From positions 431,133 to 495,132 of the forward strand of contig OZ251505.1 of NCBI GenBank assembly GCA_965242795.1: DNA of 64,000 nucleotides. Reading direction: 5' to 3'. Of the stretch, positions 1,200 to 16,499 are shown piece by piece (positions within the stretch are counted from its first letter, which is position 1; every line of letters begins with the position of its first letter). Both the position numbers and the translations under genes were made by a program. The notes beneath the pieces are model-generated. The model did not search any database. It had not been told where the DNA came from and saw nothing but the letters and a program-made list of their open reading frames with translations. Source of the DNA: an uncultured Candidatus Binatia bacterium (GTDB lineage: Bacteria; Desulfobacterota; Binatia; Bin18).

Positions 1200-2054
1200 A
1201 TGCAACAACGGTTGGCGGCGCAGACCGCGCAGGTCACGCTACCCGAGCGTGAGAAGTTTACCGCCCCGCTTCTCCTGCTGCCGGGGTTGTGGACGGGAAG
1301 CTGGGCATGGGACGAGGCGGCCTGGGCGTTTTCGCAGCGCGGCTGGGCGTGCTGGACGCTCGACCCGCTCGTGTCCGGGACGCGCCGCGCGCCGGCGTGC
1401 GATACGTTGGACGAGCGCGCCGCGCGCATAGCATCCGCAGCCGCGGTGCTCGACCAGCCGCCGATCGTCATCGGCTACGACGCGGGCGCGCTGGCGGCAC
1501 TGCTGGCCGCAGAACGCATGCCGCCCGCCGCAAGGTTCCGGGCGCTGGTGTGCGTCTCTCCGCTCGTACCGCGTAGCTTACAGGGGGGACGCAGACACGC
1601 GCTGCCGCTCGTGCGGTTGGCGGCGTTGCCGGCGCTGCTCTGGAATCGTGCTCATCCCCCGCCGTCGCGCCGAATGGCGCGCGATTTCCTGTTCCACGCG
1701 CTGCCCGCGGCCCGACAGGGCGCGCTGGCGACCAGACTGCGCCCCGACACGGGCGGCGTCGTCCGCGACCTGACGCGCGGCAACGTTACCCTGCCCGCGG
1801 CGCCGCTTCGGTGTCCGGTATGCGTCGTGTGGGGCGAGGACGACCGCATGGTCGCGTCGGCCGCGGTGCGCCGGTTCGCCACGACACTGCAAGCCGACGA
1901 GCACCCCTACGCTTGCCAAGGACACTGGCTGTTATCCGGTCCTCCCGCTGCCACACTCGTGGGCGACATCCATCGTTGGCTGATCCGCACTCTGGGCGAT
2001 GCCCTGCTGCTTCCACCGGAAGAGGAACCGACTCCCGCGGAGCGCCGAGACTAG
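1200..2054 (+). CDS. Alpha/beta-hydrolase fold protein
   Basis: 284-aa ORF with LLLPGLWTGSWAWDE...IVIGYDAGALAALLAA resembling an alpha/beta hydrolase core. The start is weakly supported. Confidence 0.5.
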   Translation: MQQRLAAQTAQVTLPEREKFTAPLLLLPGLWTGSWAWDEAAWAFSQRGWACWTLDPLVSGTRRAPACDTLDERAARIASAAAVLDQPPIVIGYDAGALAALLAAERMPPAARFRALVCVSPLVPRSLQGGRRHALPLVRLAALPALLWNRAHPPPSRRMARDFLFHALPAARQGALATRLRPDTGGVVRDLTRGNVTLPAAPLRCPVCVVWGEDDRMVASAAVRRFATTLQADEHPYACQGHWLLSGPPAATLVGDIHRWLIRTLGDALLLPPEEEPTPAERRD

Positions 2055-2112
2055 CACGGCGTCCGTCTCTCGCTTCAATCTTCACTCCCTTCCCTCAAGG
2101 TGTTGCGACTCC

Positions 2113-4134
2113 ATGCTGCAACTCAGGAACGTCAGCCTGTCGTTCGGCGGGCAACAAGTGTTTCGCGGGCTGAATTGGCAGATCCGCAAGGGTGCCCGGA
2201 TCGGGCTGGTGGGGCCCAACGGCGCCGGCAAGACGACGCTGTTCCGCATCCTGATCGGACGGCAGGAACCCGACGCCGGACAAGTGCAGCGTGCCCGCGG
2301 GCTGCGTGTCGGCTATCTGCCCCAGGAAGGCATTGAGGTATCGGGACGAAACGTGTTCGCGGAGACACGCGCGGCGTTGCCGGAGTTACCTGCGTTGCAG
2401 GCCGAACTGGCGACGCTCGAGGCGGGGCTGCATGAGGAAGCGGACGGCCTGGAGGCACAAGCCGAACTGCTGGCGCGCTACGGCGAAGTGCAGCATCGCA
2501 TCGAGGCGTTGGACGGGTTTCGCGCCGACACCGCGGTTGCCACGGTGTTGAACGGCCTGGGCTTTCACCAAGCACAGTTCACGGCGCGCACCGACACGCT
2601 GAGCGGCGGTTGGCAGGCGCGCATCGCACTGGCCAAGCTGTTGCTCCAACGGCCCGACGTCCTACTGCTGGACGAGCCGACGAACCATCTCGACCTGGAT
2701 TCGCTGCTTTGGCTGGAGTCCTACCTGCGCGGCTTTCCGGGCAGTCTGGTCATCGTGTCGCACGACCGCGCGTTTCTGGACCGCATGGTGAACCGCGTCG
2801 CCGCGCTGCACGACGCAGGGCTGACCGAGTACGTCGGCGGCTACGCGGCGTTCGAGCGCGTGTTCGAAGAACGCTTGGAGGCGCACCGCAAGGCGTACGC
2901 GGCCCAACAAGACGAAATCGAGCGCATGACGCGCTTCATCAACACGTTCCGCTACAACGCCCGCAAGGCGTCGCAGGTGCAGAGCCGCGTCAAGCAACTC
3001 GAAAAGATGGATCGGCTGCCGCCGCCGCAGGCTGCGCCCAAGGGCGTCCGGTTCGGGTTTCCCGCGGCACCGCGCAGCGGGCGCCGCATGCTCGAACTCG
3101 ACGGCGCAATCAAATGCTACGGCGCGCTGCACGTCTTCGCGGGAATCGATCTGGTCGTCGAGCGCGGCGACCGCGTGGCCCTGGTCGGCGTCAACGGGGC
3201 TGGCAAGTCCACGTTGAGCCGCATTCTGGCCGGGGTGGAAGCGCCCAGCGCGGGCAGCCGCCGCGTCGGTCATCAGGTCGTGCTCGACTATTACGCCCAA
3301 CAACAGGCCGAGCGTTTGGATGGACGGAACACGGTCTATGACGAGGTGGCGCGCGAGGCCGCGACCGACGTCGTGCCCCAGTTGCGTACGCTGCTGGGGG
3401 CGTTTCTGTTTTCGGGCGATACGGTCGATAAACCCGTCCGCGTGTTGAGCGGCGGCGAGAAGAGCCGCTTGGCGCTCGCGAAAATGTTGCTGCAAGCGTC
3501 CAACCTGCTCATTCTGGACGAGCCGACCAACCATCTCGACATCCGCACCAAGGACGTCCTCAAGCAGGCGTTGTTGCAATACGCCGGCGCCTATCTGGTC
3601 GTCTCGCACGACCGCGACTTCTTGAGCGGGTTGGTAACCAAGGTGATGGAACTGCGCAACGGCGCGTGCCACGTGTATCCGGGGACGTTCGACGAATTTC
3701 TGGATCGCAAGGCGCGCGAAACCGCCCAAGCCGGTCGGACCGCGCAAGGCAACGGTTCCGTCCCCGGTCAAGCCGGGACTTCGACCGCTCCCGTGACAGA
3801 TGTCGAGGATCCCGCTGTGGAGGCGACGCTCGTCGCGATTCGGCACGCCGGCCGTCTCAAGAAAAAAGGCAAACGCGCCTACCAGCAACACAAGGCGGCA
3901 CGCGCCGCCCGGCAACAGCGGGCCAAGAGGGTCGCCGCTGCCGAACGGCGCATTACCGCACTGGAAGACGAAATTAAGGAACTGGAACGCACGCTGGCCA
4001 GTCAGGAAACCTTCAGCGATGCCGAGCGCGCCCGTGAGGCCGCGGCCCGGCACGAACGGCTCCGCCGGCAACTCGACGAGCAGTACGCGGTCTGGACGGA
4101 GTTGGCAGGCGAGACGACCGATGAATCCGCCTGA
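2113..4134 (+). CDS. ABC-F family ATPase (tandem ATP-binding cassettes, Uup/EttA/YheS-like) with a C-terminal coiled-coil tail
   Basis: Two Walker A motifs (GPNGAGKTT, GVNGAGKST), two LSGG signatures, two Walker B (LLLDEPTNHLD, LILDEPTNHLD) and no TM domain. The tail is rich in K/R/E/A. Confidence 0.9.
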   Translation: MLQLRNVSLSFGGQQVFRGLNWQIRKGARIGLVGPNGAGKTTLFRILIGRQEPDAGQVQRARGLRVGYLPQEGIEVSGRNVFAETRAALPELPALQAELATLEAGLHEEADGLEAQAELLARYGEVQHRIEALDGFRADTAVATVLNGLGFHQAQFTARTDTLSGGWQARIALAKLLLQRPDVLLLDEPTNHLDLDSLLWLESYLRGFPGSLVIVSHDRAFLDRMVNRVAALHDAGLTEYVGGYAAFERVFEERLEAHRKAYAAQQDEIERMTRFINTFRYNARKASQVQSRVKQLEKMDRLPPPQAAPKGVRFGFPAAPRSGRRMLELDGAIKCYGALHVFAGIDLVVERGDRVALVGVNGAGKSTLSRILAGVEAPSAGSRRVGHQVVLDYYAQQQAERLDGRNTVYDEVAREAATDVVPQLRTLLGAFLFSGDTVDKPVRVLSGGEKSRLALAKMLLQASNLLILDEPTNHLDIRTKDVLKQALLQYAGAYLVVSHDRDFLSGLVTKVMELRNGACHVYPGTFDEFLDRKARETAQAGRTAQGNGSVPGQAGTSTAPVTDVEDPAVEATLVAIRHAGRLKKKGKRAYQQHKAARAARQQRAKRVAAAERRITALEDEIKELERTLASQETFSDAERAREAAARHERLRRQLDEQYAVWTELAGETTDESA

Positions 4135-4173
4135 ATCGACGACCCGCCCGACCGGAAACGAGGAGACACCACC

Positions 4174-5157
4174 ATGCGTATCGGATTAGGACTGCCGCCC
4201 ACCGGACACCGGTTCGAAGTCTATAAGGACGTCGCGCAGCAGGCCGAGGCCGGCGGCTTCGAGAGCCTGTGGTGCGGCGAAGCGTGGGGCACCGAGACGA
4301 GTACCCTCGTCACCGCGTTTCTGGCGTGGACACGGCGGATGTCCGTGGGCACCGGGATCATCTCGCTGTATCTGCGCCCGCCTACGCTGACCGCAATGCA
4401 GGCGGCGAGCATGGACCTGGTCGCCCCGGGCCGGGCGCGGCTGGGCATCGGCGTGAGCACGCGGAACATCAACGCATTTCACGGCATCCCGTGGGACCAT
4501 CCGGTCGCCCGCACGCGCGAATACGTGGACGTGCTACGCCGTGTGCTGGCGGGCGAGCGGGTCACTCACGCCGGACGCTTCTACCGGCCGCAGGGCTTTC
4601 GGCTGAGCGCCACGTTGTCACAGAAAGTGCCGATCTACCTGGCCGCGGTGAACCCACGCATGTTGCGCCTAGCGGGTGAGATTGCCGACGGCGTGTTGCT
4701 CGCGTGGCTGCCGGCGCGCCAAGTGGCCGCGTCGGTCGCCGAAATCGCCAAAGGGGCGGCGCGCGCCGGGCGCCGCCTCGCGGACATCGATATCGGCTGT
4801 TACGTCCACACCTTGGTCAATCCCGACCGTGAACGCGCGCTGGCGCAACTCCGCCACGTCCTGGTCGGCTATTGCCAGGCCAACACCTACATTCAGGGAT
4901 TTCGGCGTTTCGGCTATGGCGACGTGCTGGACGAGGTCCTGGCCCGTTGGCAAGCCGGAGACCGGGCCGGTGCGGAGCAGGCGATTCCCGACCGCATGGT
5001 GGAGGAACTGTTCGTCTTCGGCGCGCCGGCGGACTGCCATGCCCAACTCGCCCGCTTCGTCGATGCCGGCGTCCAGCATCCGATCGTGGCCGCGCCGCCC
5101 ACCAGCCAACTTACGGCCGATGACCTGCACGCGATGGTCGCCGCGTTCGCGCAATAG
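4174..5157 (+). CDS. Luciferase-like monooxygenase (LLM) family, probable F420/flavin-dependent oxidoreductase
   Basis: GGAGA RBS; 327 aa with an LLM-like TIM-barrel pattern (GFESLWCGEAWG...PIYLAAVNPRMLRLAGEIADGVLL). Confidence 0.8.
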   Translation: MRIGLGLPPTGHRFEVYKDVAQQAEAGGFESLWCGEAWGTETSTLVTAFLAWTRRMSVGTGIISLYLRPPTLTAMQAASMDLVAPGRARLGIGVSTRNINAFHGIPWDHPVARTREYVDVLRRVLAGERVTHAGRFYRPQGFRLSATLSQKVPIYLAAVNPRMLRLAGEIADGVLLAWLPARQVAASVAEIAKGAARAGRRLADIDIGCYVHTLVNPDRERALAQLRHVLVGYCQANTYIQGFRRFGYGDVLDEVLARWQAGDRAGAEQAIPDRMVEELFVFGAPADCHAQLARFVDAGVQHPIVAAPPTSQLTADDLHAMVAAFAQ

Positions 5158-5162
5158 GCCGA

Positions 5163-6167
5163 TCAGCCGACCAGCATCTTCAACGCCCGCTCGTATGCGC
5201 GGGTGTCCGTGGCCTCGATATTGACCGGGTGGATGTCCACCCCGCACTCGGCCTGCGCCTCCAGGCGGTCGAGACACGCTTCGGCCGAACCCGCGCACAA
5301 GGTCTCGTCCACGAGTTCGTCGGTGACCACCAGCGCCGCGGCCCGAGAGCCGTCTTTCCAGGCCGCCTTGACCTTTTCGACCGTGTCGGCATGGCCGAGT
5401 CGGCTGAGTTGCGCCGCATAGTACGCGCCCATCCGACCGATGTAGAACGCCGCGGCCGCGGCGTGCGCGGCGCGGACTTTTGCGACGTCGGAGGTCACCG
5501 CGACACTCCCCGGCGCACGGACACTGACCGCGTTTGCAGGCCGTCCCGCGGCCATGCTCATGGCGCGCACCGCGTCGATTTCGGCCTGCAGCTTCTTCAT
5601 GGGCAGCCAGATCGGCAGCCAGCCGTCGGCCAGTTCCGCGGTCAGTTTCAGAGCCTTGGCATTCAGCGTCGCCAGATAGATCGGAATGCGGTCACGTACC
5701 GGCTGGAAACGCAACGTAAACCCGCGTTGGAGATTGAACAGCGAGCCCTCGTAGTGCAGCTTCTCGCCCTTCAGCAGCATCTGCATGATTTCGACGTACT
5801 CTTTGAGTCGGGTGCGCGGCGGCTCGAACGGCACGCCGTGAAAGTGCTCGATGACCTGCGCGCCGCTCGTGCCCAGGCCGATCAGCATCCGCCCTTCCGA
5901 CAACTCGTCCAGCGTCGCAAAATGCTGGGCCAGTGCGGCCGGAGTCCGCGAATAGACGTTCACGATGCCGGTGCCGAGGCGGATGCGGTCGGTCTCGGAG
6001 GCCAACAGCGACAGCAGCGTGAACGCGTCGCGGCCCCACCCCTCGGGAATCCAGACCGAATGGACGCCCGCGGCGTCCGCGACCTTCACGCGCTCGATGA
6101 TCGCGCGGTAGTCGGTCCGCCCCTGCCGATCGTTCCAATCAACGCCGATAGCAATATCGCGAGCCAT
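5163..6167 (-). CDS. Luciferase-like monooxygenase (LLM) family oxidoreductase, paralogous to the gene at 4174-5157 and convergent with it
   Basis: 334 aa with GVHSVWIPEGWG...PIYLATLNAKALKLTAELADGWL. The stop codons of the two LLM genes are only ~5 bp apart. Confidence 0.8.
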   Translation of the reverse strand: MARDIAIGVDWNDRQGRTDYRAIIERVKVADAAGVHSVWIPEGWGRDAFTLLSLLASETDRIRLGTGIVNVYSRTPAALAQHFATLDELSEGRMLIGLGTSGAQVIEHFHGVPFEPPRTRLKEYVEIMQMLLKGEKLHYEGSLFNLQRGFTLRFQPVRDRIPIYLATLNAKALKLTAELADGWLPIWLPMKKLQAEIDAVRAMSMAAGRPANAVSVRAPGSVAVTSDVAKVRAAHAAAAAFYIGRMGAYYAAQLSRLGHADTVEKVKAAWKDGSRAAALVVTDELVDETLCAGSAEACLDRLEAQAECGVDIHPVNIEATDTRAYERALKMLVG

Positions 6168-6217
6168 GTTTCCTCCAGACGGTTGTCTTCAAAGACGACT
6201 CCGAGAGGCGACATACT

Positions 6218-6826
6218 TTAGAAGGCTTGATTCTCCTGAAGCCATTCGCCGACGATGGTCGTGTAGTCGTTGAAGATGAGTTCGCTCGGTTGCAGGCGCA
6301 ATTCGGCGCAGAGCCCCGGCAGCGTTCTTCTGAAGTGCCGATACCGTTTCCAGATGTGGGTTCCGCCGGGCACGTCGGCCTTCGTCTGGGAAGAGCGCAG
6401 CCATTGGCTTACGACCTGGACCGCTGTCTGCGGTGTGTTGTCGTGCGCCTTGATGTCCTGGCCCGAAATGTCGGAAATGAACTTCTGGTAGCGGTACCGG
6501 TCCCGATCCACGACGAGGACGTTTCTCTCGCCATCGTGCCGAGCGAGACCCAGGAACAACCCGAGCTCGAAAGGCATGTTGAACCGGGGAAGCCGATGGG
6601 CCGTATCGAGCCCGGTTCTGGAAATGTCGTGGTATCCGAACCGGCAATCGTCCATGATCTGAACGATCGTGTCCACGCGGACTTTTGCCGTGTTGATGAT
6701 TTCGAGCGTGGAGCGAGCCACGAATCCGCAGTCGAAGATGGCGAAGACGACCGCGTCGAAGATGGGCTTGTACGACCTATCGAAAGGACAATTGATGAAA
6801 ACGTTGGCGTTGTCTTCAGCGACCAT
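6218..6826 (-). CDS. Hypothetical protein with weak TIR/DUF4062/nucleoside-2-deoxyribosyltransferase-like features
   Basis: 202 aa. The N-terminal VFINCPFD strand resembles VFIS(S/Y) of TIR/DUF4062, and there is a later FELG motif. GC of the gene (~58%) is lower than its flanks. Confidence 0.45.
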   Translation of the reverse strand: MVAEDNANVFINCPFDRSYKPIFDAVVFAIFDCGFVARSTLEIINTAKVRVDTIVQIMDDCRFGYHDISRTGLDTAHRLPRFNMPFELGLFLGLARHDGERNVLVVDRDRYRYQKFISDISGQDIKAHDNTPQTAVQVVSQWLRSSQTKADVPGGTHIWKRYRHFRRTLPGLCAELRLQPSELIFNDYTTIVGEWLQENQAF

Positions 6827-6837
6827 TCACACCTGCG

Positions 6838-7053
6838 TCAGCCGACTCGGTGCATGACCTTTCGCACGGCTTCTCGCACGGCCTCGCGCGAGACCGTCCC
6901 GATCTGGTGCGACGGCTTGACGATCCGCTGCGGGAGGACACGCCCCTCGCCGACCCGCGGCTCTGAACCGCCCTCCAAGGTACTGAGATCAGCGTATCTG
7001 ACCGGGCGATCCGTCTTTTCTCTCGTGCCTCTCATTCCTGAATAGTGTGCCAT
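6838..7053 (-). CDS. Small hypothetical ORF (71 aa) coupled directly upstream of the TIR-like gene
   Basis: Its stop lies 11 nt before the downstream ATG, with an AGGTG RBS embedded in the junction. There is no recognisable domain and it could be spurious. Confidence 0.25.
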   Translation of the reverse strand: MAHYSGMRGTREKTDRPVRYADLSTLEGGSEPRVGEGRVLPQRIVKPSHQIGTVSREAVREAVRKVMHRVG

Positions 7054-7237
7054 GCCTACTCTCCTTCATGGTTCCCCATCGTCTTCTGTCTCGGGGAACG
7101 ATGTGAGCTTGTTGCATCATTGCTTCTTCCGTTTTGTCAAGAGGCATCGTCACGAGTTACGCGATATGAAGAAGTTCGGGGCATCATGCAGACGACCTCC
7201 AGGAGAATCCGGGGACCACACAACGCCGCTCACACTG

Positions 7238-7840
7238 TCAAAGTTGAGCGTCTATGGCGTAATAGCCCATCTGGGTTGGCGCGGTGAAATACTCCGCCAG
7301 CCGGGAGAGTACCAGCGGAAAGAATTCGCCTTCTCGGTCCGCCGCTTGCATCTGCTCCAAGCCTGTCCAGAAGCTGATCCCGCGTCCGCTGCCTTGTGCA
7401 CGGTTAACCAGCCACAGCACGCCTTGGAAGCCGGGCTGCCGTTTCAGCAACGACAGATAGTCGGCTTCATACACTTCGCGGGCCGATTCGATGTGCCGGT
7501 CGGGGATCGGCAGCCTAATCACGCGGGCAACCCGTCCGCCGATATGGTGGCCTGCTCGGACCAATACTTCGTAACTTTCGGGCTGCGGCGGTTCGGCCAG
7601 AAAGGGGAGCAGCGTGGAGGCGACGGCCTTGCGGCTGGCGGGCTCGGAATCGGCCAGGGAGTCCGGTGAGTTCCACAGGCTGAGAAGGAATCCGGCCGAT
7701 GTGTCGGCCTGCGACATCAGCAGCGCCGCGCCGAACCCCGGCGCGTGTACGAGCGGCGGCAACACCGCCTGCCGGCAGACCGACACACAGTCGGACAGCA
7801 GCGACGGTTTGCACTGAAACGGAATGACTCGCGCGTGCAT
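7238..7840 (-). CDS. Hypothetical protein, possibly a tandem ABM (antibiotic-biosynthesis-monooxygenase-like) fold
   Basis: 200 aa. The C-terminal half GFQGVLWLVNRAQGSGRGISFWTGLEQMQAA is reminiscent of an ABM/Dabb domain. Confidence 0.4.
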   Translation of the reverse strand: MHARVIPFQCKPSLLSDCVSVCRQAVLPPLVHAPGFGAALLMSQADTSAGFLLSLWNSPDSLADSEPASRKAVASTLLPFLAEPPQPESYEVLVRAGHHIGGRVARVIRLPIPDRHIESAREVYEADYLSLLKRQPGFQGVLWLVNRAQGSGRGISFWTGLEQMQAADREGEFFPLVLSRLAEYFTAPTQMGYYAIDAQL

Positions 7841-8018
7841 GACGCCTCCCCTTCTCGACCCTCGCCGGATGGATACCTGATTCTCAGATGGAATGCAGCC
7901 GATACTGGTTCAGCGGCGTCGGCAGGTTTTCGTTTCAACTTGACGGACGCGGCGGAACGGTGTCACACAACGATCAGAACGGTCGGCAACGGTTCGGATA
8001 CCCCGAATGAGGTACGAA

Positions 8019-9389: not shown

Positions 9390-9559
9390 AGCAGCGCGGG
9401 AAATGTCCGAGGAAACATCGCCGCACACGGACACGCGGAATTGCTCCGGCTCCGCGGAAACCATCTTCGACATTCCGTCTGTAGAAGCGGGGAATGACCC
9501 GCCCCGCCTTGCCAAGAAAGCGGCGGAACTGCTAAGGGAACGCCCTGCATTCCCCCCGT

Positions 9560-9634
<75 letters not shown>

Positions 9635-10142: not shown

Positions 10143-10213
10143 CGTCGTTCCTTGGGCGGGCGGCGTCCCTTCGGACTCGAAGGAATCGGCGGACCCGGCC
10201 CACCCGCGCGAAC

Positions 10214-11968
10214 CTACGACCGGCGCGCCTTCGCGTCGCCCGGGATACGGATGTCGTCAACGAGCGTCTGCACGTCCGCGGGCGGCGGCGCGGTCAGCCA
10301 CGAGAGGCCGAGCGCGACCGCGAAATTCAGCAGCATCCCGACCCCGCCGATGCCTTCCGGTGAAATACCCCACCACCAGTGCGCCGCGCTGTTCAGTTCC
10401 GGGGAAACGAATTTGAAATAGATGATGTAGGCGCCCGTAAATCCCAAACCGACCACCATGCCGGCAACCGCGCCCATGCAGTTCGTCCGCTTGGTGAAGA
10501 TGCCCAGCACGATGGCCGGAAAGAAACTCGACGCGGCCAAGCCGAACGCGAACGCCACGACCTGCGCGACGAAGCCGGGCGGATGGATGCCGAAATACCC
10601 GGCCACCAGCACCGCCACGCCCGCGGCCAGCCGCGCATAGCCCAACTCCTGCCGTTCGGTCAGGTCGGGGCGGATGACCTTCTTCATCAGATCGTGGGAG
10701 ATGGAGACGGACAGCACGAGGAGGAGACCCGCTGCGGTGGACAACGCCGCGGCCAACCCGCCGGCCGCCACCAGCGCGACCAGCCACGCCGGCAGCCGCG
10801 CGATTTCCGGGTTGGCCAACACGATGATGTCCCGGTCGATGTCCAGTTCGTTGCCTTGCCAGCCCCGCGCCGCGGCCTGTGCGGCGAACGCCGGGTTCCG
10901 GTCGTTGTAGTACTGAATGCGCCCGTCGCGATTCTTGTCCGAAAAGCGGATCAGCCCGGTCTCCTCCCATTTGGAGAACCACGCCGGCATGCCGGCGTAC
11001 TCGGCGCCGTGAACGGTCGTCAGGATGTTCGTGCGCGCGAACGCGGCGACCGCCGGCGCGCTGGCGTACAGGATGACGATGAACAGCAGCGCCCAGCCCG
11101 CGGACAGGCGCGCGTCGCGCACGTTGGGGACCGTGAAGAACCGGGTGATGACGTGCGGCAGGCCCGCGGTGCCGACCATCAGCGACAGGGTGATGAAGAA
11201 GACGTCGACGACCGTCTTGCTGCCGCGGCCGGTATAGGCCGCGAAGCCCAGTTCCCGGCTCAAGGCGTCGAGCTTGTCCAACAGCGCGACACCGGGCTCG
11301 GCCGACAGGTCTGCGCCGAACCCCATCTGCGGCAGCAACGTGTCGGTCATCATCAGCGAAATGAAGAAGATCGGCAGCATGTAGGCGAAGATCAGCACGC
11401 AATATTGGGCCACTTGGGTGTACGTGATGCCCTTCTGGCCGCCGGTCACCGCATAGACGAACACGAGCGCCATGCCGACCGCCACGCCCCACTCGACCGG
11501 CACTTCGAGGAACCGGGCGAACACCACCCCGACCCCGCGCATCTGTCCGGCAACGTAGGTGAACGACACGAAGATGGCACACACCAGGGCGACGACCCGC
11601 GCGGTCTGCGAATAATACCGCTCGCCCACGAAATCGGGCACCGTGTATTTGCCGAACTTGCGCAGATACGGCGCCAGCAGCAACGCCAGCAGCACGTAGC
11701 CGCCGGTCCAGCCCATCAGATACATGGCGCCGTCGCGGCCCAGCACCGACATCATGCCGGCCATCGAAATGAATGACGCCGCGCTCATCCAGCCGGCCGC
11801 GGTCGCCATGCCGTTGGCGAGCGCGCCGACCCGCGAGCCGGCCACGTAGAAATCCGCGGTCGATTCGGCCTTGGCGCGCCACGCGATGCCGATGTACAGC
11901 GCGAACGACAGACCGACGAGAACGAAGGTCCAGACTTTGACCGGGTCGGTCGGGAGCAGGTCGGTCAC
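10214..11968 (-). CDS. actP: Cation/acetate symporter ActP (sodium:solute symporter family)
   Basis: 584 aa with strong SSS/ActP similarity (YVAGSRVGALANGMATAAGWMSAASFISMAGM...GTAGLPHVITRFFTV...SHDLMKKVIRP). The GTG start overlaps the upstream stop as GTGA. Confidence 0.9.
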   Translation of the reverse strand: MTDLLPTDPVKVWTFVLVGLSFALYIGIAWRAKAESTADFYVAGSRVGALANGMATAAGWMSAASFISMAGMMSVLGRDGAMYLMGWTGGYVLLALLLAPYLRKFGKYTVPDFVGERYYSQTARVVALVCAIFVSFTYVAGQMRGVGVVFARFLEVPVEWGVAVGMALVFVYAVTGGQKGITYTQVAQYCVLIFAYMLPIFFISLMMTDTLLPQMGFGADLSAEPGVALLDKLDALSRELGFAAYTGRGSKTVVDVFFITLSLMVGTAGLPHVITRFFTVPNVRDARLSAGWALLFIVILYASAPAVAAFARTNILTTVHGAEYAGMPAWFSKWEETGLIRFSDKNRDGRIQYYNDRNPAFAAQAAARGWQGNELDIDRDIIVLANPEIARLPAWLVALVAAGGLAAALSTAAGLLLVLSVSISHDLMKKVIRPDLTERQELGYARLAAGVAVLVAGYFGIHPPGFVAQVVAFAFGLAASSFFPAIVLGIFTKRTNCMGAVAGMVVGLGFTGAYIIYFKFVSPELNSAAHWWWGISPEGIGGVGMLLNFAVALGLSWLTAPPPADVQTLVDDIRIPGDAKARRS

Positions 11969-12294
11969 CGCGGCGCTCCGGTCTCGTGCGCGCCGGAGCG
12001 TTCCGTTGCATCCTGCGCGGCGTGGCGTTCGTCCAGACTGTAGGCGCGGTCCAGCCGGTTCATCAGCCAGACGTAGGCGAAGATCAGCACCACGAAGACG
12101 TACATGGAGCCTTGCTGCGCCATCCAGAAGCCGAGCCGGAACCCGCCTAGCCGGATTTCGTTCAGCGCATCGACGAACACGACCGACAGCCCGAACGAGA
12201 CAATGGCCCACACGCCGAGCAACGCGGCCACGATGCCGACGTTCGCGCGCCAATAGGCACGCCGGCGCGTTGCGGAGGAAGCGGGCGCGTTCAT
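11965..12294 (-). CDS. DUF485 (YjcH-like) small inner-membrane protein, the canonical partner upstream of actP
   Basis: 109 aa with two TM helices. Its stop overlaps the actP GTG start by 4 nt (translational coupling). Confidence 0.8.
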   Translation of the reverse strand: MNAPASSATRRRAYWRANVGIVAALLGVWAIVSFGLSVVFVDALNEIRLGGFRLGFWMAQQGSMYVFVVLIFAYVWLMNRLDRAYSLDERHAAQDATERSGAHETGAPR

Positions 12295-12388
12295 GTCGAG
12301 AGGCTATACCACAAGCCCGAACGGGATGGCACGGGAGTTGCGCAATCCCCAAGCGACAAGATAAGCAAGCGAACCGGAGCACGAACCC

Positions 12389-14155
12389 ATGCTGCGCGAG
12401 TTGCAATTGGCGAACTTCAAGGCGTTCGGCGAGAAGGTGAGAATCCCGATTCGTCCGCTGACGCTCATCTTCGGCGCCAACTCCTCCGGCAAGAGTTCCG
12501 TCTTCCAGGCGTTGTTGCTCTTGAAGCAGACGCTGGAGGAGGCGCAGAGCCCAGAGACCCTCCTACTTTTCAAAGGCAATTTGGTGGACCTGGGAACGTA
12601 TAGAGACATCGTACACCGGCACGATGTCGATCTGAGTTTCGAGGTTGGAGTACAATTCGATAAAAAAAACTTCAAGGATGCAGATATAGAAAAAGACGTG
12701 TACGGGGAAGAATGGTCGCGAGCTTCTCCCCCGATCAGTCGAGTAAAGGGACCCGGATCGTTACCCAACGCACGAGAAATTCTCAATGATGCAGACGCAT
12801 TGAGTGCCGGCATGACGATCAAGTTTTTCGAAAATTCCGGCAAATCGGAGGTGAATGTCCATATCGGAAACGAATCTTTACCTCTGATTTCGTATGATGA
12901 CGGTTCTCCTTTCAAGATGCACATGAATTTCGATTCAAGATTCTGGCATCCCTGGTGGGGGTTGATGAAACATACGATTAAGGGAACCTTGCTCAAAGTG
13001 GCCCACTCCGTAGGTGTCAATGGAGAAGAAATATATCGATCCGACGGCACTGGCAAATACAAGACTCGGACGGAACTTGAGCGGCTTCTAGACAATTATG
13101 AATGGAAGGACGTGACAAGAGATCTCGAGCGGATGAAAAAATTCCGTTTCGCTAGTTCTTACCCGTCTCAGTTTAGGACTGTGAAGTCCGTCGAAAATGC
13201 CAAACTTTATATTCCTGCCATCATGTTTAACCGTGGACTACCTCCCCTAGAACACAGTCCCCTCAATGAAGACAGTCCCCTCAATTGGAAGATACGCACC
13301 CGGGCGGACTATTCCCGGCCTCCTGGTTCAGAATCCATATCTGCAATAGCAGACTCCTGGAACGTTGGGGAGGAGTTAGGTCGTTCCATCAATCAATTCA
13401 CGTCCGATGTAGGTTCTCTTTTTCATCGGAGCCTAAAAGAATCGGTATATCTCGGTCCTCTGAGGAGCCAACCCGAGCGTCATTACCTATTCAGAGGGGA
13501 TACGGCAGAACACGTCGAGCAAGCCGGAGAAAATCTTGCCGATCTTTTGTTCAAAATGTCACAAGATCGACAGGGCCATCTACAAAATGAACGTCTCGAT
13601 AAGATCAATGACGCCCTCAAGCTTCTCGGCATAAAATACGAACTCAGACTGTCAAGATTACAAAACGAGAATAAGACGCCAAGCAACATCTTCTCTCTGG
13701 TTCTCGTTGACCGCCAAGGGGTCGAAGCCAACGTCCGGGATGTCGGTTTTGGTATCAGCCAGGTGCTTCCCATTGTCGTACAGAGCAGACTTTCGGAGAA
13801 GCAGATGCTTTTGATCGAACAGCCCGAAATTCACCTGCACCCCGCCCATCAGGCCGAACTCGGCGACCTGTTCATCCGGTCCGCCCTCGGCGAACAACGC
13901 AATACCTTCTTGTTGGAGACACACAGCGAACACCTGATCCTCCGCATCCTGCGCCGTATCCGCGAAACGACGGAAAAGGGAAAGCCCTCGGACCCGGACG
14001 TCCCCCCGATCCGCCCGGAGGACGTGTCCGTTCTCTACGTGCAGCCGAGCAAGAACGGCGCCCGTGTCATCGAGATTCCGGTTACCGAAGACGGCGATTT
14101 CGCGCGCAACTGGCCGGGCGGCTTCTTCTCCGAGCGCGTCGAAGACCTGTTCTAG
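12389..14155 (+). CDS. ABC-type AAA ATPase (AAA_21/AAA_15-like, RecF/SbcC-like fold) with a DUF3696-like C-terminal domain; candidate defence-system ATPase
   Basis: Walker A GANSSGKSS in the first 35 aa; Walker B/D-loop LLIEQPEIHLHPAHQAELGDLF; H-loop LLETHSEHLI; a long inserted middle region; C-terminal ...YVQPSKNGARVIEIPVTEDGDFARNWPGGFFSERVEDLF. GC ~50% against a ~68% background. Confidence 0.85.
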   Translation: MLRELQLANFKAFGEKVRIPIRPLTLIFGANSSGKSSVFQALLLLKQTLEEAQSPETLLLFKGNLVDLGTYRDIVHRHDVDLSFEVGVQFDKKNFKDADIEKDVYGEEWSRASPPISRVKGPGSLPNAREILNDADALSAGMTIKFFENSGKSEVNVHIGNESLPLISYDDGSPFKMHMNFDSRFWHPWWGLMKHTIKGTLLKVAHSVGVNGEEIYRSDGTGKYKTRTELERLLDNYEWKDVTRDLERMKKFRFASSYPSQFRTVKSVENAKLYIPAIMFNRGLPPLEHSPLNEDSPLNWKIRTRADYSRPPGSESISAIADSWNVGEELGRSINQFTSDVGSLFHRSLKESVYLGPLRSQPERHYLFRGDTAEHVEQAGENLADLLFKMSQDRQGHLQNERLDKINDALKLLGIKYELRLSRLQNENKTPSNIFSLVLVDRQGVEANVRDVGFGISQVLPIVVQSRLSEKQMLLIEQPEIHLHPAHQAELGDLFIRSALGEQRNTFLLETHSEHLILRILRRIRETTEKGKPSDPDVPPIRPEDVSVLYVQPSKNGARVIEIPVTEDGDFARNWPGGFFSERVEDLF

Positions 14156-14157
14156 CC

Positions 14158-15096
14158 ATGATCCACGAATACGCGTTGGAACCCGAAGTCGTCGCCTCGT
14201 GGCATGACCGCGTCAAATTCCGGTTCTTCATCGACCAGTTCGGATGTGGAGCCGGACGGGTCGTCGGGATGTATCCGAGCAAAACGAATTGGAGAAAACA
14301 CGTTCGGGCGGCGTTGGATGCCGACTTTTCTCCAACCGACAAAGATCGAAAGAGAGTGGAGGAGATCGTCAAGAAACTCATTGCGTCCAAGGTGCAACGT
14401 GATGGGAGTGAATGGAACGGCACGCTTGATTGGCTCACCAACGCGGAAAGCGAACATCTCCGCAAACCCTTCCACGCCATTCTTGCCCGTGAGAACCCGC
14501 GCAATAACGAGACGGTCATGCGTGAAGCCGACGTCCTGGAAAGAGAAGCAGCCGGTTGGAATGCTCCACACTCGATAGTTGTCCGACGGAGTGCGGAGAA
14601 CATGGCGGAGTGCGTGGCACTGATGCTGCGTTGTGCAACCCGCGTACTCTTCGTCGATCCGTATTTCCGGGCCGACAAACCACGATTCAGAGAGCCACTA
14701 GCCGCGTTTCTTCGGCGGGTCAGCCCACAAGCCACGCTGGAAATTCATGCCTCAGCCTCTTACAAAAACGCTCCGAATGAGGAGCATTTCCGGAACGAAT
14801 CTGAACGCGACTTGCAGCGTCATTCCGTCATTCCAGACGGACGAGAACTCACGGTGTACCGTTGGCGAGACCGTACAGGCGGCGAAAAAATGCACAATCG
14901 TTACGTCTTGACCGACATCGGCGGCGTCGAATTCGGCGCCGGGCTGGATGAAGGGGAGGAGGGTACTAAAGACGATGTCAACCGCTTGGGCGCGGAGCCC
15001 TACGAAAAGCGGTATCAGGACTATGCCGGACCGTGCTTCTCCTTCGATCCTGATGGTGAGCCGTTCCGTGTTCCATCCAACCAGGAACGGACATAA
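14158..15096 (+). CDS. Hypothetical protein (312 aa), coupled partner of the AAA ATPase and possible effector
   Basis: Its start lies 2 nt after the ATPase stop, on the same strand and in the same AT-rich islet. No confident domain was found. It has a single H-x-R-x4-D-x6-G stretch (HNRYVLTDIGGVEFG) loosely reminiscent of a PLD/HKD motif. Confidence 0.6.
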   Translation: MIHEYALEPEVVASWHDRVKFRFFIDQFGCGAGRVVGMYPSKTNWRKHVRAALDADFSPTDKDRKRVEEIVKKLIASKVQRDGSEWNGTLDWLTNAESEHLRKPFHAILARENPRNNETVMREADVLEREAAGWNAPHSIVVRRSAENMAECVALMLRCATRVLFVDPYFRADKPRFREPLAAFLRRVSPQATLEIHASASYKNAPNEEHFRNESERDLQRHSVIPDGRELTVYRWRDRTGGEKMHNRYVLTDIGGVEFGAGLDEGEEGTKDDVNRLGAEPYEKRYQDYAGPCFSFDPDGEPFRVPSNQERT

Positions 15097-15131
15097 AGTC
15101 GAGCCAGAAAATTTGCTCGGCCTTCCGGGGG

Positions 15132-15146
15132 GAGAAAAAATTTCTC
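15132..15146. terminator. Short palindrome GAGAAAAAATTTCTC between convergent genes; possible bidirectional terminator hairpin
   Basis: Perfect 6-bp inverted repeat with an A/T-rich centre, lying between the 3' ends of 14158-15096 (+) and 15177-15581 (-). Confidence 0.35.
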
Positions 15147-15176
15147 GGAATGCCGGCGCCAGCGATGAAATGTAGA

Positions 15177-15581
15177 TTACGCCGCGTCCCGCGGCGGGGG
15201 CAGTTCGCGCGAAACGATGTACTGCAAGACGCTCTGCGGCGTAATCAGTCCCACCACAATGCCTTGGCGCACCACCGGCAGGTGATGGATGTGCTGCTCG
15301 CGCAGGATGCGGATCACGTGATCCGCGGGGGTGAACTCGTCAACGGTCGTCACGGGCGCGGTCATCAGCGTCGGAATGGTCGCCTCGCCCGGCTGCGGCC
15401 CCAAAAAGGCGTCCAGCACGTCGCTTTCGGTGATGATGCCCAGCACGTGGCCGTCGGCGTCCGTCACCGGGAGCCCGGTGATGTCCAGACGGGCGAGGCG
15501 CCGCGCCGTCTCCGCCAACGTCGTCTCGGGCGTGACCACCACGTCGTTGACCACCATGAGTTGCCGGGCGTGTCCTCTCAC
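15177..15581 (-). CDS. CBS domain-containing protein
   Basis: 134 aa with a tandem CBS pattern (TPETTLAETARRL...ITGLPVTDADGHVLGIITESDVL...HHLPVVRQGIVVGLITPQSVL). Confidence 0.8.
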   Translation of the reverse strand: MRGHARQLMVVNDVVVTPETTLAETARRLARLDITGLPVTDADGHVLGIITESDVLDAFLGPQPGEATIPTLMTAPVTTVDEFTPADHVIRILREQHIHHLPVVRQGIVVGLITPQSVLQYIVSRELPPPRDAA

Positions 15582-15852
15582 TGAAGCCTCCCCGCGGGCG
15601 ACCGGGTCTGCCGAAGCAAGCCGCTGGGCCGGACGGAGCCTATCAGGCGCGCGCAGTGTGGCATACCCGGCCGGGCCGGTCGAGCTTGGAACCTCAGTCC
15701 GGTATCCGAGATATAATAGAGAGGCCGAAGTATCGGATTTCCAAAGGTTCGGCTTGACCGGTCTGAAATTTCCTGTTCCCTTTCGCCCATAAAGGCGGGA
15801 ACCTGGTGCGGAGTAGCCATCAAAACGGCGAGAGGCTGGGAGGGCTCCGAAA

Positions 15853-16101
15853 ATGACCGCAAGGGAACAGCTTCACCAATTGGTGGACACGTTACCGGAA
15901 CACGATCTGGCAACCGCGGAACGTGTGCTGGCCGGATTGTCCGCACTGTCCGATCCTGTGAGGGCGGCGCTGGCAACGGCACCCCCTGACGATGAACCCC
16001 TGACGGACGCCGAAGCGGAACAGATTGCCGCCGGCGAACGCGACATCGAAAACGGGCGAATGGTTACAAACGCCCAAGTTCGTACCCACCTTGGGCTGTG
16101 A
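15853..16101 (+). CDS. Type II antitoxin paired with the RelE/ParE toxin
   Basis: 82-aa acidic protein immediately upstream of the toxin, overlapping it by 4 nt (GTGA). Confidence 0.6.
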   Translation: MTAREQLHQLVDTLPEHDLATAERVLAGLSALSDPVRAALATAPPDDEPLTDAEAEQIAAGERDIENGRMVTNAQVRTHLGL

Positions 16102-16340
16102 CGGTCCACTACACCAAGCGAGCCGTGAAGGACCTCGAGAGGCTTCCACGCACCGGCCAACGGCGAATCGTGGAGGCAGTGGATCGCTTCGCCATGAACG
16201 GCGTCGGTGACGTGCGGACACTGACGGGACGATGGCGGGGGAGGTTTCGCTTGCGCGTCGGAACGTTGCGCGTCATTTTCCGTATGGACGACGGTATCAA
16301 CGTCGTTCGTGTGCTGCACCGGCGGGAGGCATACCGTTAG
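16098..16340 (+). CDS. Type II toxin, RelE/ParE family
   Basis: 80 aa with VHYTKRAVKDLERLP...IVEAVDRFA...FRLRVGTLRVIFRMDDGINVVRVLHRREAY, typical of RelE/ParE. The GTG start overlaps the antitoxin stop. Confidence 0.8.
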   Translation: MTVHYTKRAVKDLERLPRTGQRRIVEAVDRFAMNGVGDVRTLTGRWRGRFRLRVGTLRVIFRMDDGINVVRVLHRREAYR

Positions 16341-16499
16341 AGAATGACGATCAAGACACTTCTGACCGTAATGCGGCAACGGTCCCCCGATTCCGAATCG
16401 ACGCGCTTGGGGAGATGCGTTCAGGTCATTCACACGTCTGTCTTTTCTCAGTATAGTGGCGGGCCACGCCGGTCGGGTGCGTAAGGCACGCTGGGTCGC

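Follow-up and report, generated by a model that had tools for sequence, protein, structure and literature searches.

A probable Menshen-like two-gene defence module, without NsnA, in an uncultured Candidatus Binatia bacterium

Menshen is said, from work by Millman in 2022, to be made up of NsnA, NsnB and NsnC. The three genes are contiguous, and NsnA (ParB-DUF262 + ParBDB) is encoded immediately upstream of NsnB. This report concerns a pair of tightly coupled genes that resembles the NsnB-NsnC core of that system and lies at 12389-15096 of a 64,000-nucleotide (nt) stretch of DNA from an uncultured Candidatus Binatia bacterium (GenBank assembly GCA_965242795.1, contig OZ251505.1, positions 431,133 to 495,132 of the forward strand; this whole stretch is called the window below). 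The first gene encodes an ATPase related to NsnB, and the second a partner that appears to be built on the plan of NsnC. From the evidence set out below we infer that the pair is probably a two-gene Menshen-like module, of NsnB/NsnC type and without NsnA, that acts against phage or by abortive infection.

The closest described systems share a division of labour between an ATP-binding cassette (ABC) ATPase and an effector. According to Li et al. (PMC12065111), NsnB deviates at three places: the DE dyad of Walker B is replaced (EN), the Q-loop has an arginine, and the SGG sequence has become GxG. The same authors describe Menshen NsnC as an inactive ‘inPIN’ N-domain joined to a variable effector domain. 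Of the effector types, PB-PLD1 comes nearest to MIT_C: an acidic residue follows its beta-2, and it carries an H-D-R motif. MIT_C-like domains also terminate many BrxL proteins. HEC-03 (Hma-embedded candidate 03; Payne et al., bioRxiv 10.1101/2024.01.29.577857) consists of two genes, for an ABC ATPase and a PIN protein. It is embedded in other defence systems and protects E. coli, for which both genes are required. In PARIS (AriA-AriB), Septu (PtuA-PtuB) and Gabija (GajA-GajB), an oligomer of OLD/AAA_15-type ABC ATPases restrains a nuclease until phage is sensed.

In the window the pair is encoded by two open reading frames (ORFs):

12389-14155, plus strand: ORF1 (gene 1), 588 amino acids, predicted ABC ATPase
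14158-15096, plus strand: ORF2 (gene 2), 312 amino acids, putative effector

The gap between the ORF1 stop and the ORF2 start is 2 nt (TTC TAG cc ATG), and the genes are translationally coupled. The same order, ATPase followed by tightly coupled effector, is found in Menshen. A preliminary description, made from the letters of this DNA, had reported the two coupled ORFs together with a series of peptide motifs, all of which are present exactly as described.

Gene 1 matches the Pfam families AAA_15 (2e-25), AAA_21 (8e-18) and, above the family cut-off, DUF3696 (PF12476, 5e-5). Its best PADLOC models are NsnB (4.5e-58), PDC-M55A (1e-54) and the HEC-03 ATPase (2.9e-51); matches to the AriA models are far weaker (1.2e-27), and GajA likewise falls behind NsnB. 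A profile search of the PDB gave distant matches only (OLD-family nuclease, 2e-12; GajA, ~1e-6; PtuA, 1e-4) and no close solved structure. Judged by these matches, gene 1 is an ABC ATPase of the NsnB/HEC-03 type with a DUF3696 tail and belongs to a defence-associated clade, in keeping with the preliminary description. Two points of nomenclature may be added here. The PADLOC entry PDLC04148 names the ATPase model ‘HEC-03B’, whereas in the preprint the ATPase is HEC-03A and the PIN protein HEC-03B; and in the literature on PDC-M55 no paper mentioning the name was found.

Conservation along the ATPase was followed in alignments of 74 and 24 orthologues drawn from related loci. The features of ORF1 are:

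12473-12496, plus strand: Walker A, GANSSGKS (amino acids 29-36; GANSSGKSS, amino acids 29-37), with G29, N31, S32, G34, K35 and S36 invariant
12626-13408, plus strand: hypervariable, indel-rich insert (amino acids ~80-340), from the conservation profile of the 74 ATPases
13448-13465, plus strand: YLGPLR motif (amino acids 354-359), in which an arginine replaces the ABC Q-loop glutamine
13739-13762, plus strand: signature variant DVGFGISQ (GxG for SGG), with G453, G455 and Q458 invariant
13808-13828, plus strand: Walker B, LLIEQPE, with an E-Q dyad for D-E and E477, Q478, P479 and E480 invariant
13916-13933, plus strand: H-loop, ETHSEH (amino acids 510-515), with E510, H512, S513 and E514 invariant
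14009-14146, plus strand: DUF3696 C-terminal tail (amino acids 541-586), Pfam PF12476, 5e-5

All three NsnB motif deviations are therefore shared by the ATPase of the window, as are the NsnB match (4.5e-58) and the DUF3696 tail. In the YLGPLR motif P357 and R359 are invariant, and Y354, G356 and L358 are conserved in at least 90% of the aligned sequences. The Walker B stretch LLIEQPEIHLHP corresponds to amino acids 474-485 of ORF1. Since the catalytic glutamate of Walker B is replaced in the E-Q dyad, the protein is probably an ATP-binding switch and not a fast hydrolase. The best-conserved part of the ATPase is its C-terminal region, where ORF1 ends with NWPGGFFSERVEDLF and the tail motif W575-P-x-G-F-F-x-E is invariant. 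The DUF3696 tail is the predicted docking site for the gene 2 product; for the ATPases of PARIS, Septu and Gabija, to which the window ATPase is less similar (AriA 1.2e-27, GajA ~1e-6, PtuA 1e-4), such tail docking was not established in this analysis.

The ATPase differs from Menshen NsnB in being ~240 amino acids longer than the NsnB profile, owing to the hypervariable insert. The insert has a guanine + cytosine (GC) content of 47.1%, and comparison with the closest related locus (L001, from the Candidatus Binatia metagenome-assembled genome OZ241332.1, 87% identity) gives it the highest ratio of non-synonymous to synonymous divergence (dN/dS) found for the pair, 0.79. We regard it as a candidate diversifying sensor surface. 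Within the insert there is an 18-nt tandem duplication in perfect register, GAACACAGTCCCCTCAAT / GAAGACAGTCCCCTCAAT, at 13250-13285, which encodes EHSPLN-EDSPLN.

For gene 2 the preliminary description could name no family, and by sequence this is still the case: there is no match in Pfam, NCBIfam, PADLOC (v2) or PHROGs, and neither the single sequence nor a 48-sequence profile found anything usable among the PDB sequences. In the absence of any Pfam, NCBIfam, PHROGs or PADLOC v2 model, current defence-finder pipelines would miss the family. It is a large one. A word-indexed search returned 410 relatives, and a profile search of 1.84 billion cluster representatives returned 2,844 at E<=1e-3 and 1,067 at E<=1e-30, nearly all of them 295-335 amino acids long and aligned end to end. 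At 50% identity the family comprises more than 1,000 clusters. The window protein itself has no record in public assemblies by exact look-up.

The partner is, on the other hand, recognisable by its predicted structure, contrary to the preliminary description. The AlphaFold2 model has a predicted local distance difference test score (pLDDT) of 87.3 and a predicted template modelling score (pTM) of 0.82, and a Foldseek search with it placed MITD1 on top (E 4.7e-5, probability 1.0), followed by proteins of the phospholipase D (PLD) superfamily. According to this model gene 2 encodes a PIN-like plus PLD/MIT_C-like protein, with the following features:

14158-14553, plus strand: PIN-like N-terminal domain (amino acids ~1-132), from the fold and the order of secondary structures
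14566-15093, plus strand: PLD-superfamily, MIT_C-like C-terminal domain (amino acids ~137-312), from the fold, which is the alpha/beta fold of PLD
14656-14667, plus strand: DPYF motif (D167, P168, F170) after a beta-strand, D167 being kept in 98% of 251 relatives
14893-14943, plus strand: HxR variant of the PLD HKD motif, H246-N-R248-YVLT-D253-IGG...G262

A short H-x-R stretch had already been said vaguely to recall PLD, a suggestion borne out by the predicted fold of the C-domain and by conservation. The stretch, HNRYVLTDIGGVEFG, covers amino acids 246-260 of ORF2, and among the 251 relatives H246 (99%), R248 (99%), T252 (97%), G255 (93%), G256 (95%) and G262 (98%) are nearly always present; D264 is kept in 93-98%, and D253 falls under the 90% mark. 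D167 matches in position the conserved acidic residue that follows beta-2 in PB-PLD1/MIT_C, and the H-x-R stretch resembles the HDR motif of these domains. The N-domain presents a different picture. Of its residues, those that reach 93% conservation (P9, P40, W45, W92, F28, R34 and N95 among them) are for the most part structural, and none is acidic; E4 reaches at least 90%, and E8 60-90%. PIN nucleases have an invariant set of three or four acidic residues, and since the N-domain has none, the PIN-like domain looks catalytically dead and is probably inactive.

By fold, then, the partner follows the NsnC plan, with an inactive-looking PIN-like N-domain and a C-domain of the PB-PLD1/MIT_C kind that carries an H-x-R motif. 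Its likeness to HEC-03 is less complete. Both systems have a PIN-like partner, by fold in the case of the window, and the window ATPase matches the HEC-03 model at 2.9e-51; the HEC-03 partner, however, is a VapC-like PIN protein, whereas that of the window is without the conserved acidic set, has an additional PLD/MIT_C-like domain and does not match the model of the HEC-03 partner, so that the pair is not a proven member of HEC-03. From PARIS, Gabija and Septu the pair is set apart by its effector, which is PIN-like/PLD instead of Toprim (AriB, the GajA C-terminus) or HNH (PtuB); no Toprim (DUF4435) or AriB match was found in the partner. The best structural match, human MITD1, contains MIT_C and is a eukaryotic ESCRT-III- and membrane-binding protein with no demonstrated catalysis, and its sequence similarity to the effector is marginal. 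Other sequence links are weak: 19 of 48 family members match the PADLOC model for BrxL (best 1.4e-5). As the NsnC architecture is already published (PMC12065111) and HEC-03 two-gene systems have been validated experimentally, the module is not of the undescribed kind that had at first been held possible. The protection of E. coli by HEC-03 makes a defence role for an ATPase + PIN architecture credible, and by analogy the NsnA-less pair may work like the NsnB-NsnC core of Menshen and like HEC-03.

The distribution of the pair was surveyed by scanning one genome per species, which yielded 80 loci. In 78 of these the ATPase homologue ends within ~35 nt of the partner start or overlaps it, so that the coupled two-gene module of the preliminary description is indeed conserved; one of the two exceptions has a small ORF in between, and the other is without the ATPase. 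The hosts belong to about ten phyla and include Binatia, Latescibacterota, Desulfobacterota, Acidobacteriota, Gemmatimonadota, Myxococcota, Planctomycetota, Pseudomonadota (Accumulibacter) and others, and the pair is present on Methylocella and Deinococcus plasmids too. No DUF262/ParB (NsnA) gene adjoins it in the window, in the 80 loci, in the two plasmid loci or in a further locus, L083. Because the defining NsnA is missing from all loci, the pair is not Menshen proper. One might still suppose a canonical three-gene Menshen with an NsnA (ParB-DUF262) encoded elsewhere in the genome, as NsnB is the best PADLOC match of the ATPase and the effector has the NsnC architecture. This is extremely improbable, since the three genes of Menshen are contiguous and no DUF262/ParB-like gene stands beside the pair in any of the neighbourhoods, which largely refute the idea.

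In place of NsnA, two other kinds of gene are found upstream, a type I restriction-modification (R-M) operon or an RtcR-like sigma-54 activator. In 33 of the 80 loci the pair forms the 3' end of a same-strand hsdR-hsdM-hsdS operon. On the Methylocella plasmid, for example, the order is WYL regulator, hsdR, hsdM, hsdS, ATPase, partner, SIR2, DUF87. A further 22 loci have a sigma-54 enhancer-binding activator directly upstream of the pair (co-directional in 14, divergent in 8), two of the R-M-linked loci carry the activator as well, and 15 loci have neither. The idea that R-M-linked loci always hide an RtcR-like gene farther upstream was rejected, given that in L083 an ABC transporter lies upstream of hsdR. 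Other neighbours of the pair are Gabija (GajA/GajB), Fic, a KAP NTPase, NACHT-like proteins, SIR2-HerA/DUF87, ThiF-JAB and additional AAA_15/21 ATPases. Together with type I R-M they constitute a defence-island signature, and the placement in defence islands that had been expected of the pair is thus confirmed for its relatives. In three Latescibacterota loci (L012, L017 and L019, ~1522-6131) a protein of ~1,500 amino acids with NACHT/AAA_16 and HEAT is encoded between hsdS and the pair.

The frequent position at the end of hsd operons recalls the anticodon nucleases PrrC and RloC, in which an ABC-type ATPase module governs a nuclease inside such operons. In the related ABC ATPase system PARIS, it is the anti-restriction protein Ocr that is sensed. 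The pair might similarly be a guard that monitors type I R-M, fires once an anti-restriction protein of a phage has put the R-M complex out of action and works only together with R-M; PrrC and RloC are both cited as nucleases that reside in type I R-M loci under the control of an ABC ATPase (PMC12065111, bioRxiv 10.1101/2024.01.29.577857). PrrC and RloC, however, combine ATPase and nuclease in a single protein, with another kind of nuclease domain, whereas the pair of the window consists of two genes with no hsd gene adjoining them (the screen for R-M genes covered the neighbours of the pair and not the rest of the 64 kb). The 22 loci with the RtcR-like activator alone upstream and the 15 with neither also argue against such dependence, and defence genes often cluster or embed without functional dependence (bioRxiv 10.1101/2024.01.29.577857). 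We consider an obligate guard of R-M quite unlikely.

Several loci contain tandem arrays of ATPase-partner pairs, three pairs in L038 and L060 and two in L011, L013, L023 and L061. A single RtcR-like activator heads the arrays in L023, L038, L060 and L061, and several of the arrays are from Latescibacterota. Within arrays the ATPases are 44-65% identical (92.5% in L011), with 55-65% in Latescibacterota arrays behind one activator, and the partners just 25-31%. In L011 the two ATPases, at 92.5% identity, differ mainly in the last ~90 amino acids, and the identity of their partners is 28.6%. Such a swap in nature speaks for a matched pair of DUF3696 tail and partner N-domain, and it is consistent with the sandwich of NsnB tail and inPIN predicted by AlphaFold3 for Menshen (PMC12065111).

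Upstream of gene 1 the window contains a promoter element and a leader:

12327-12341, plus strand: sigma-54 -24/-12 promoter, TGGCACGGGAGTTGC, 62 nt 5' of the ORF1 ATG
12342-12388, plus strand: conserved 5' leader, with the Shine-Dalgarno sequence GGAG at 12376-12379

Neither this promoter nor the link to an RtcR-like activator figured in the preliminary description. The element is a perfect one of the TGGCAC-N5-TTGC type and is unique in the window, where 0.12 would be expected by chance; no sigma-70-like promoter was found upstream of ORF1. In nine Binatia relatives it stands 62-63 nt before the ATPase gene, and the leader is conserved to the ATG. Among 76 loci the motif occurs upstream of the operon in 19, against ~0.76 expected, an enrichment of ~25-fold. 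Loci from Desulfobacterota and Accumulibacter likewise have it before the ATPase gene, and several R-M-linked loci have it before hsdR. Sigma-54 motifs that coincide with the called hsdR start or lie shortly before it were noted in L029 (223), L054 (243), L077 (141), L039 (859) and L074 (118), the last sitting 41 nt inside the called hsdR ORF. Given these motifs at the hsdR starts of operons that end with the pair, whole R-M operons may be under sigma-54 control.

The activators that adjoin the pair in 24 related loci are of one family, with a distinctive ~185-amino-acid N-terminal domain, HTH_8 and, in 15 of 21 full-length copies, the GAFTGA loop. Their best NCBIfam match is RtcR, at 325-359 bits, below the equivalog cut-off and with an alignment that reaches into the N-domain, and Pfam RtcR/CARF matches go up to 9e-6. 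By these scores they are RtcR-like, and not RtcR. In several Binatia loci (L005 at 6064-6232, L008, L014 and L078) a GC-rich palindrome, CCCTCTCCCC-TGGAG-GGAGAGGG, separates the sigma-54 promoter from the divergent RtcR-like gene and may be the enhancer site; the window does not contain it.

RtcR-like activators, built of CARF, AAA+ and HTH domains, have been described beside R-M systems (Makarova et al. 2014, PMC4012209) and at the head of R-M/CoCoNuT superoperons (Bell et al. 2024, PMC11090510). Relatives of the pair share with these operons the upstream activator, sometimes with R-M in between, and the -24/-12 promoter. The cargo, however, is different: it is R-M and CoCoNuT (McrBC-type) in these two papers, in which a pair of ABC ATPase and PIN-PLD protein is not mentioned. 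The window differs further in that it keeps the promoter and is without the activator gene. The position of RtcR-like activators at the head of defence operons suggests, by analogy, that the module is probably inducible.

The pair has a GC content of 53.2% (ORF1 51.6%, ORF2 56.2%), compared with 64.7% in the remaining window. The dip reported in the preliminary description is thus real, although smaller than the ~50% against ~68% given there. Local flanks have 64-70%; windows of 400 nt give 0.455-0.49 across 12600-13800 and 0.55-0.58 across ORF2, the lowest value of the pair, 45.5%, lying inside the hypervariable middle of ORF1. The dip had been taken as a sign of probable horizontal acquisition; a recent one is not shown by the comparison with L001. 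The window aligns unbroken to L001 from 10213 to 15687, at 94.1% identity as against 88-91% in the flanks, and synonymous divergence (dS) is 0.10-0.32 for the pair and 0.07-0.33 for flanking genes. Since the islet is shared at 94% identity with flank-like dS, it predates the split of the two genomes, and a recent strain-specific insertion was rejected as the source of the dip. Low GC is instead a family trait of the pair in Binatia and Latescibacterota, where activator-linked pairs lie 8-17 points under their flanks. For the family in general, the patchy spread across phyla points to horizontal transfer.

Selection on the pair differs from that on most of its neighbours. Relative to L001, the effector has a dN/dS of 0.35 and the ATPase one of 0.41-0.79, compared with 0.04-0.10 for the CBS, symporter (SSF), amidase and HEAT genes; DUF4212 has 0.34. 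The pair is under relaxed or diversifying selection, still purifying in the case of the effector, and such an elevated dN/dS below 1 is typical of defence genes. These values bear on another explanation, in which the pair serves the stress response or nucleic-acid repair instead of immunity and is controlled in the manner of RtcR. The PLD-family enzyme would then be a phosphodiesterase that processes ends as Tdp1 does; the ATPase would deliver it, and RNA damage would induce the module as it does the RtcBA repair operon. The elevated dN/dS, the hypervariable ATPase insert, the tandem arrays with very divergent partners, the patchy phyletic spread, the low GC and the R-M/defence-island context are all immunity-like. 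Moreover, no rtcA or rtcB adjoins the pair, and the position of RtcR-like activators at the head of R-M and CoCoNuT defence operons has been described before (PMC4012209, PMC11090510). A repair module appears very unlikely.

The setting of the pair within the window is as had been described. Upstream of ORF1, on the minus strand, are genes for a sodium:solute symporter and DUF4212; downstream of ORF2, also on the minus strand, is a CBS-domain gene, followed by a ParE-type toxin-antitoxin pair. A tRNA gene lies upstream:

9560-9634: tRNA-Phe, upstream of the pair

A search of the islet borders for att-like direct or inverted repeats found short matches at chance level only, and neither an intrinsic terminator nor a sigma-70 promoter was found beyond chance. 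The antitoxin and ParE toxin (15853-16340; 82 and 80 amino acids, with overlapping stop and start; Pfam ParE_toxin, 2e-10) lie within 15688-16421, a segment without counterpart in the otherwise collinear L001, so that this cassette looks variable. Conversely, L001 has ~2 kb between the amidase gene and tRNA-Phe (1211-3260) that is missing in the window at 9474/9475 and may be a small insertion beside the tRNA gene.

Several observations weigh against reading the pair as a Menshen-like defence module. A scan of viral contigs found no copies of the effector family. At the sequence level, the window effector has no match at E<=1 to the PADLOC models for NsnC or for the HEC-03 or PDC-M55 partners, and 6 of 48 relatives match NsnC weakly (best 0.0034); these matches, like those to BrxL, fit the remark of Li et al. 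on the ends of BrxL proteins. The inactivity of the PIN-like domain was judged by conservation and not by mapped active-site geometry. The PLD motif has HxR rather than HxK: compared with HxK(x)4D(x)6G(S/T)xN, the stretch H246-x-R248-x4-D253-x6-G260 has R for K and no GSxN. Catalysis is predicted here, and for MIT_C-type domains it is a hypothesis in the literature (PMC12065111). Finally, no sigma-54 activator is encoded in the window, the window shares no enhancer words with the intergenic regions of activator-linked Binatia loci, and in L001 the ATPase gene (6226-7995) is split over three reading frames, with the partner intact.

The last three of these points also speak for the module being a silent relic in this genome, one that a rearrangement has parted from activator gene and enhancer and that drifts unexpressed. 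In agreement with this, homology to the activator-linked Binatia loci ends directly upstream of the -24 element (TGGCAC), and the ATPase dN/dS is high (0.41-0.79). As the activator gene is absent, the operon of the window may rely for its expression on a regulator encoded elsewhere or may be silent, and the frameshifted ATPase of L001 suggests that the pair in this lineage may be decaying or silent. Against a relic, both ORFs of the window are intact with all catalytic and structural motifs preserved, the effector is still under purifying selection (dN/dS 0.35), and the activator could sit elsewhere in the genome. The L001 frameshifts, in turn, represent either pseudogenisation or indel errors of a long-read assembly. 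On balance a silent relic is unlikely here, and the preferred reading remains that of a probable defence module of NsnB/NsnC type.

A mechanism for such a module can be proposed. The ATPase would oligomerise, and its DUF3696 tails would hold the effector in a clamp by its inactive PIN-like domain and so keep it harmless. Models for such a clamp are the predicted NsnB4-NsnC2 assembly and the solved complexes of Gabija, PARIS and Septu (PMC12065111). The hypervariable insert of the ATPase might sense a phage cue, ATP binding would switch the clamp, and the trigger would release or re-orient the effector. Nuc-type PLD nucleases pair single PLD domains into one active site. In the same way the single-HxR PLD domains of two effectors might pair into a complete active site, which would cut RNA or DNA and stop phage replication or the growth of the host. 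Transcription is proposed to require sigma-54 and an RtcR-like CARF activator, in which case the module would probably be induced by RNA-damage signals.

Tentatively, this may be carried further, to a reading that we hold to be possible though doubtful. The pair might represent a large unnamed defence family that serves as an inducible second line, in which the CARF activator senses RNA fragments produced by infection or by other defence nucleases and, through sigma-54, turns on an ATP-gated clamp, formed by an ABC ATPase without its catalytic glutamate, from which a nuclease of PIN-like/MIT_C-type PLD architecture is released. If this is true, it would be the first enzymatic role for the PLD type found in MIT_C and at the C-terminus of BrxL, and it would mean transcriptional cross-talk between defence systems.

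Taken at the strength given above, the findings suggest that the NsnB-NsnC core of Menshen is a widespread stand-alone two-gene cassette with an exchangeable upstream partner. That this partner may be NsnA, type I R-M or an RtcR-like activator is relevant to the way in which infection is detected by Menshen-type systems. Environmental phyla (Binatia, Latescibacterota, Desulfobacterota and others) contain the effector family in abundance, yet it escapes current annotation and defence-finder libraries. Its near-invariant H-x-R site would allow a direct test of whether MIT_C-type PLD domains, including those of BrxL and human MITD1, are enzymes, and the link to sigma-54 and RtcR-like activators may offer a tractable case of defence expression that is inducible and not constitutive.

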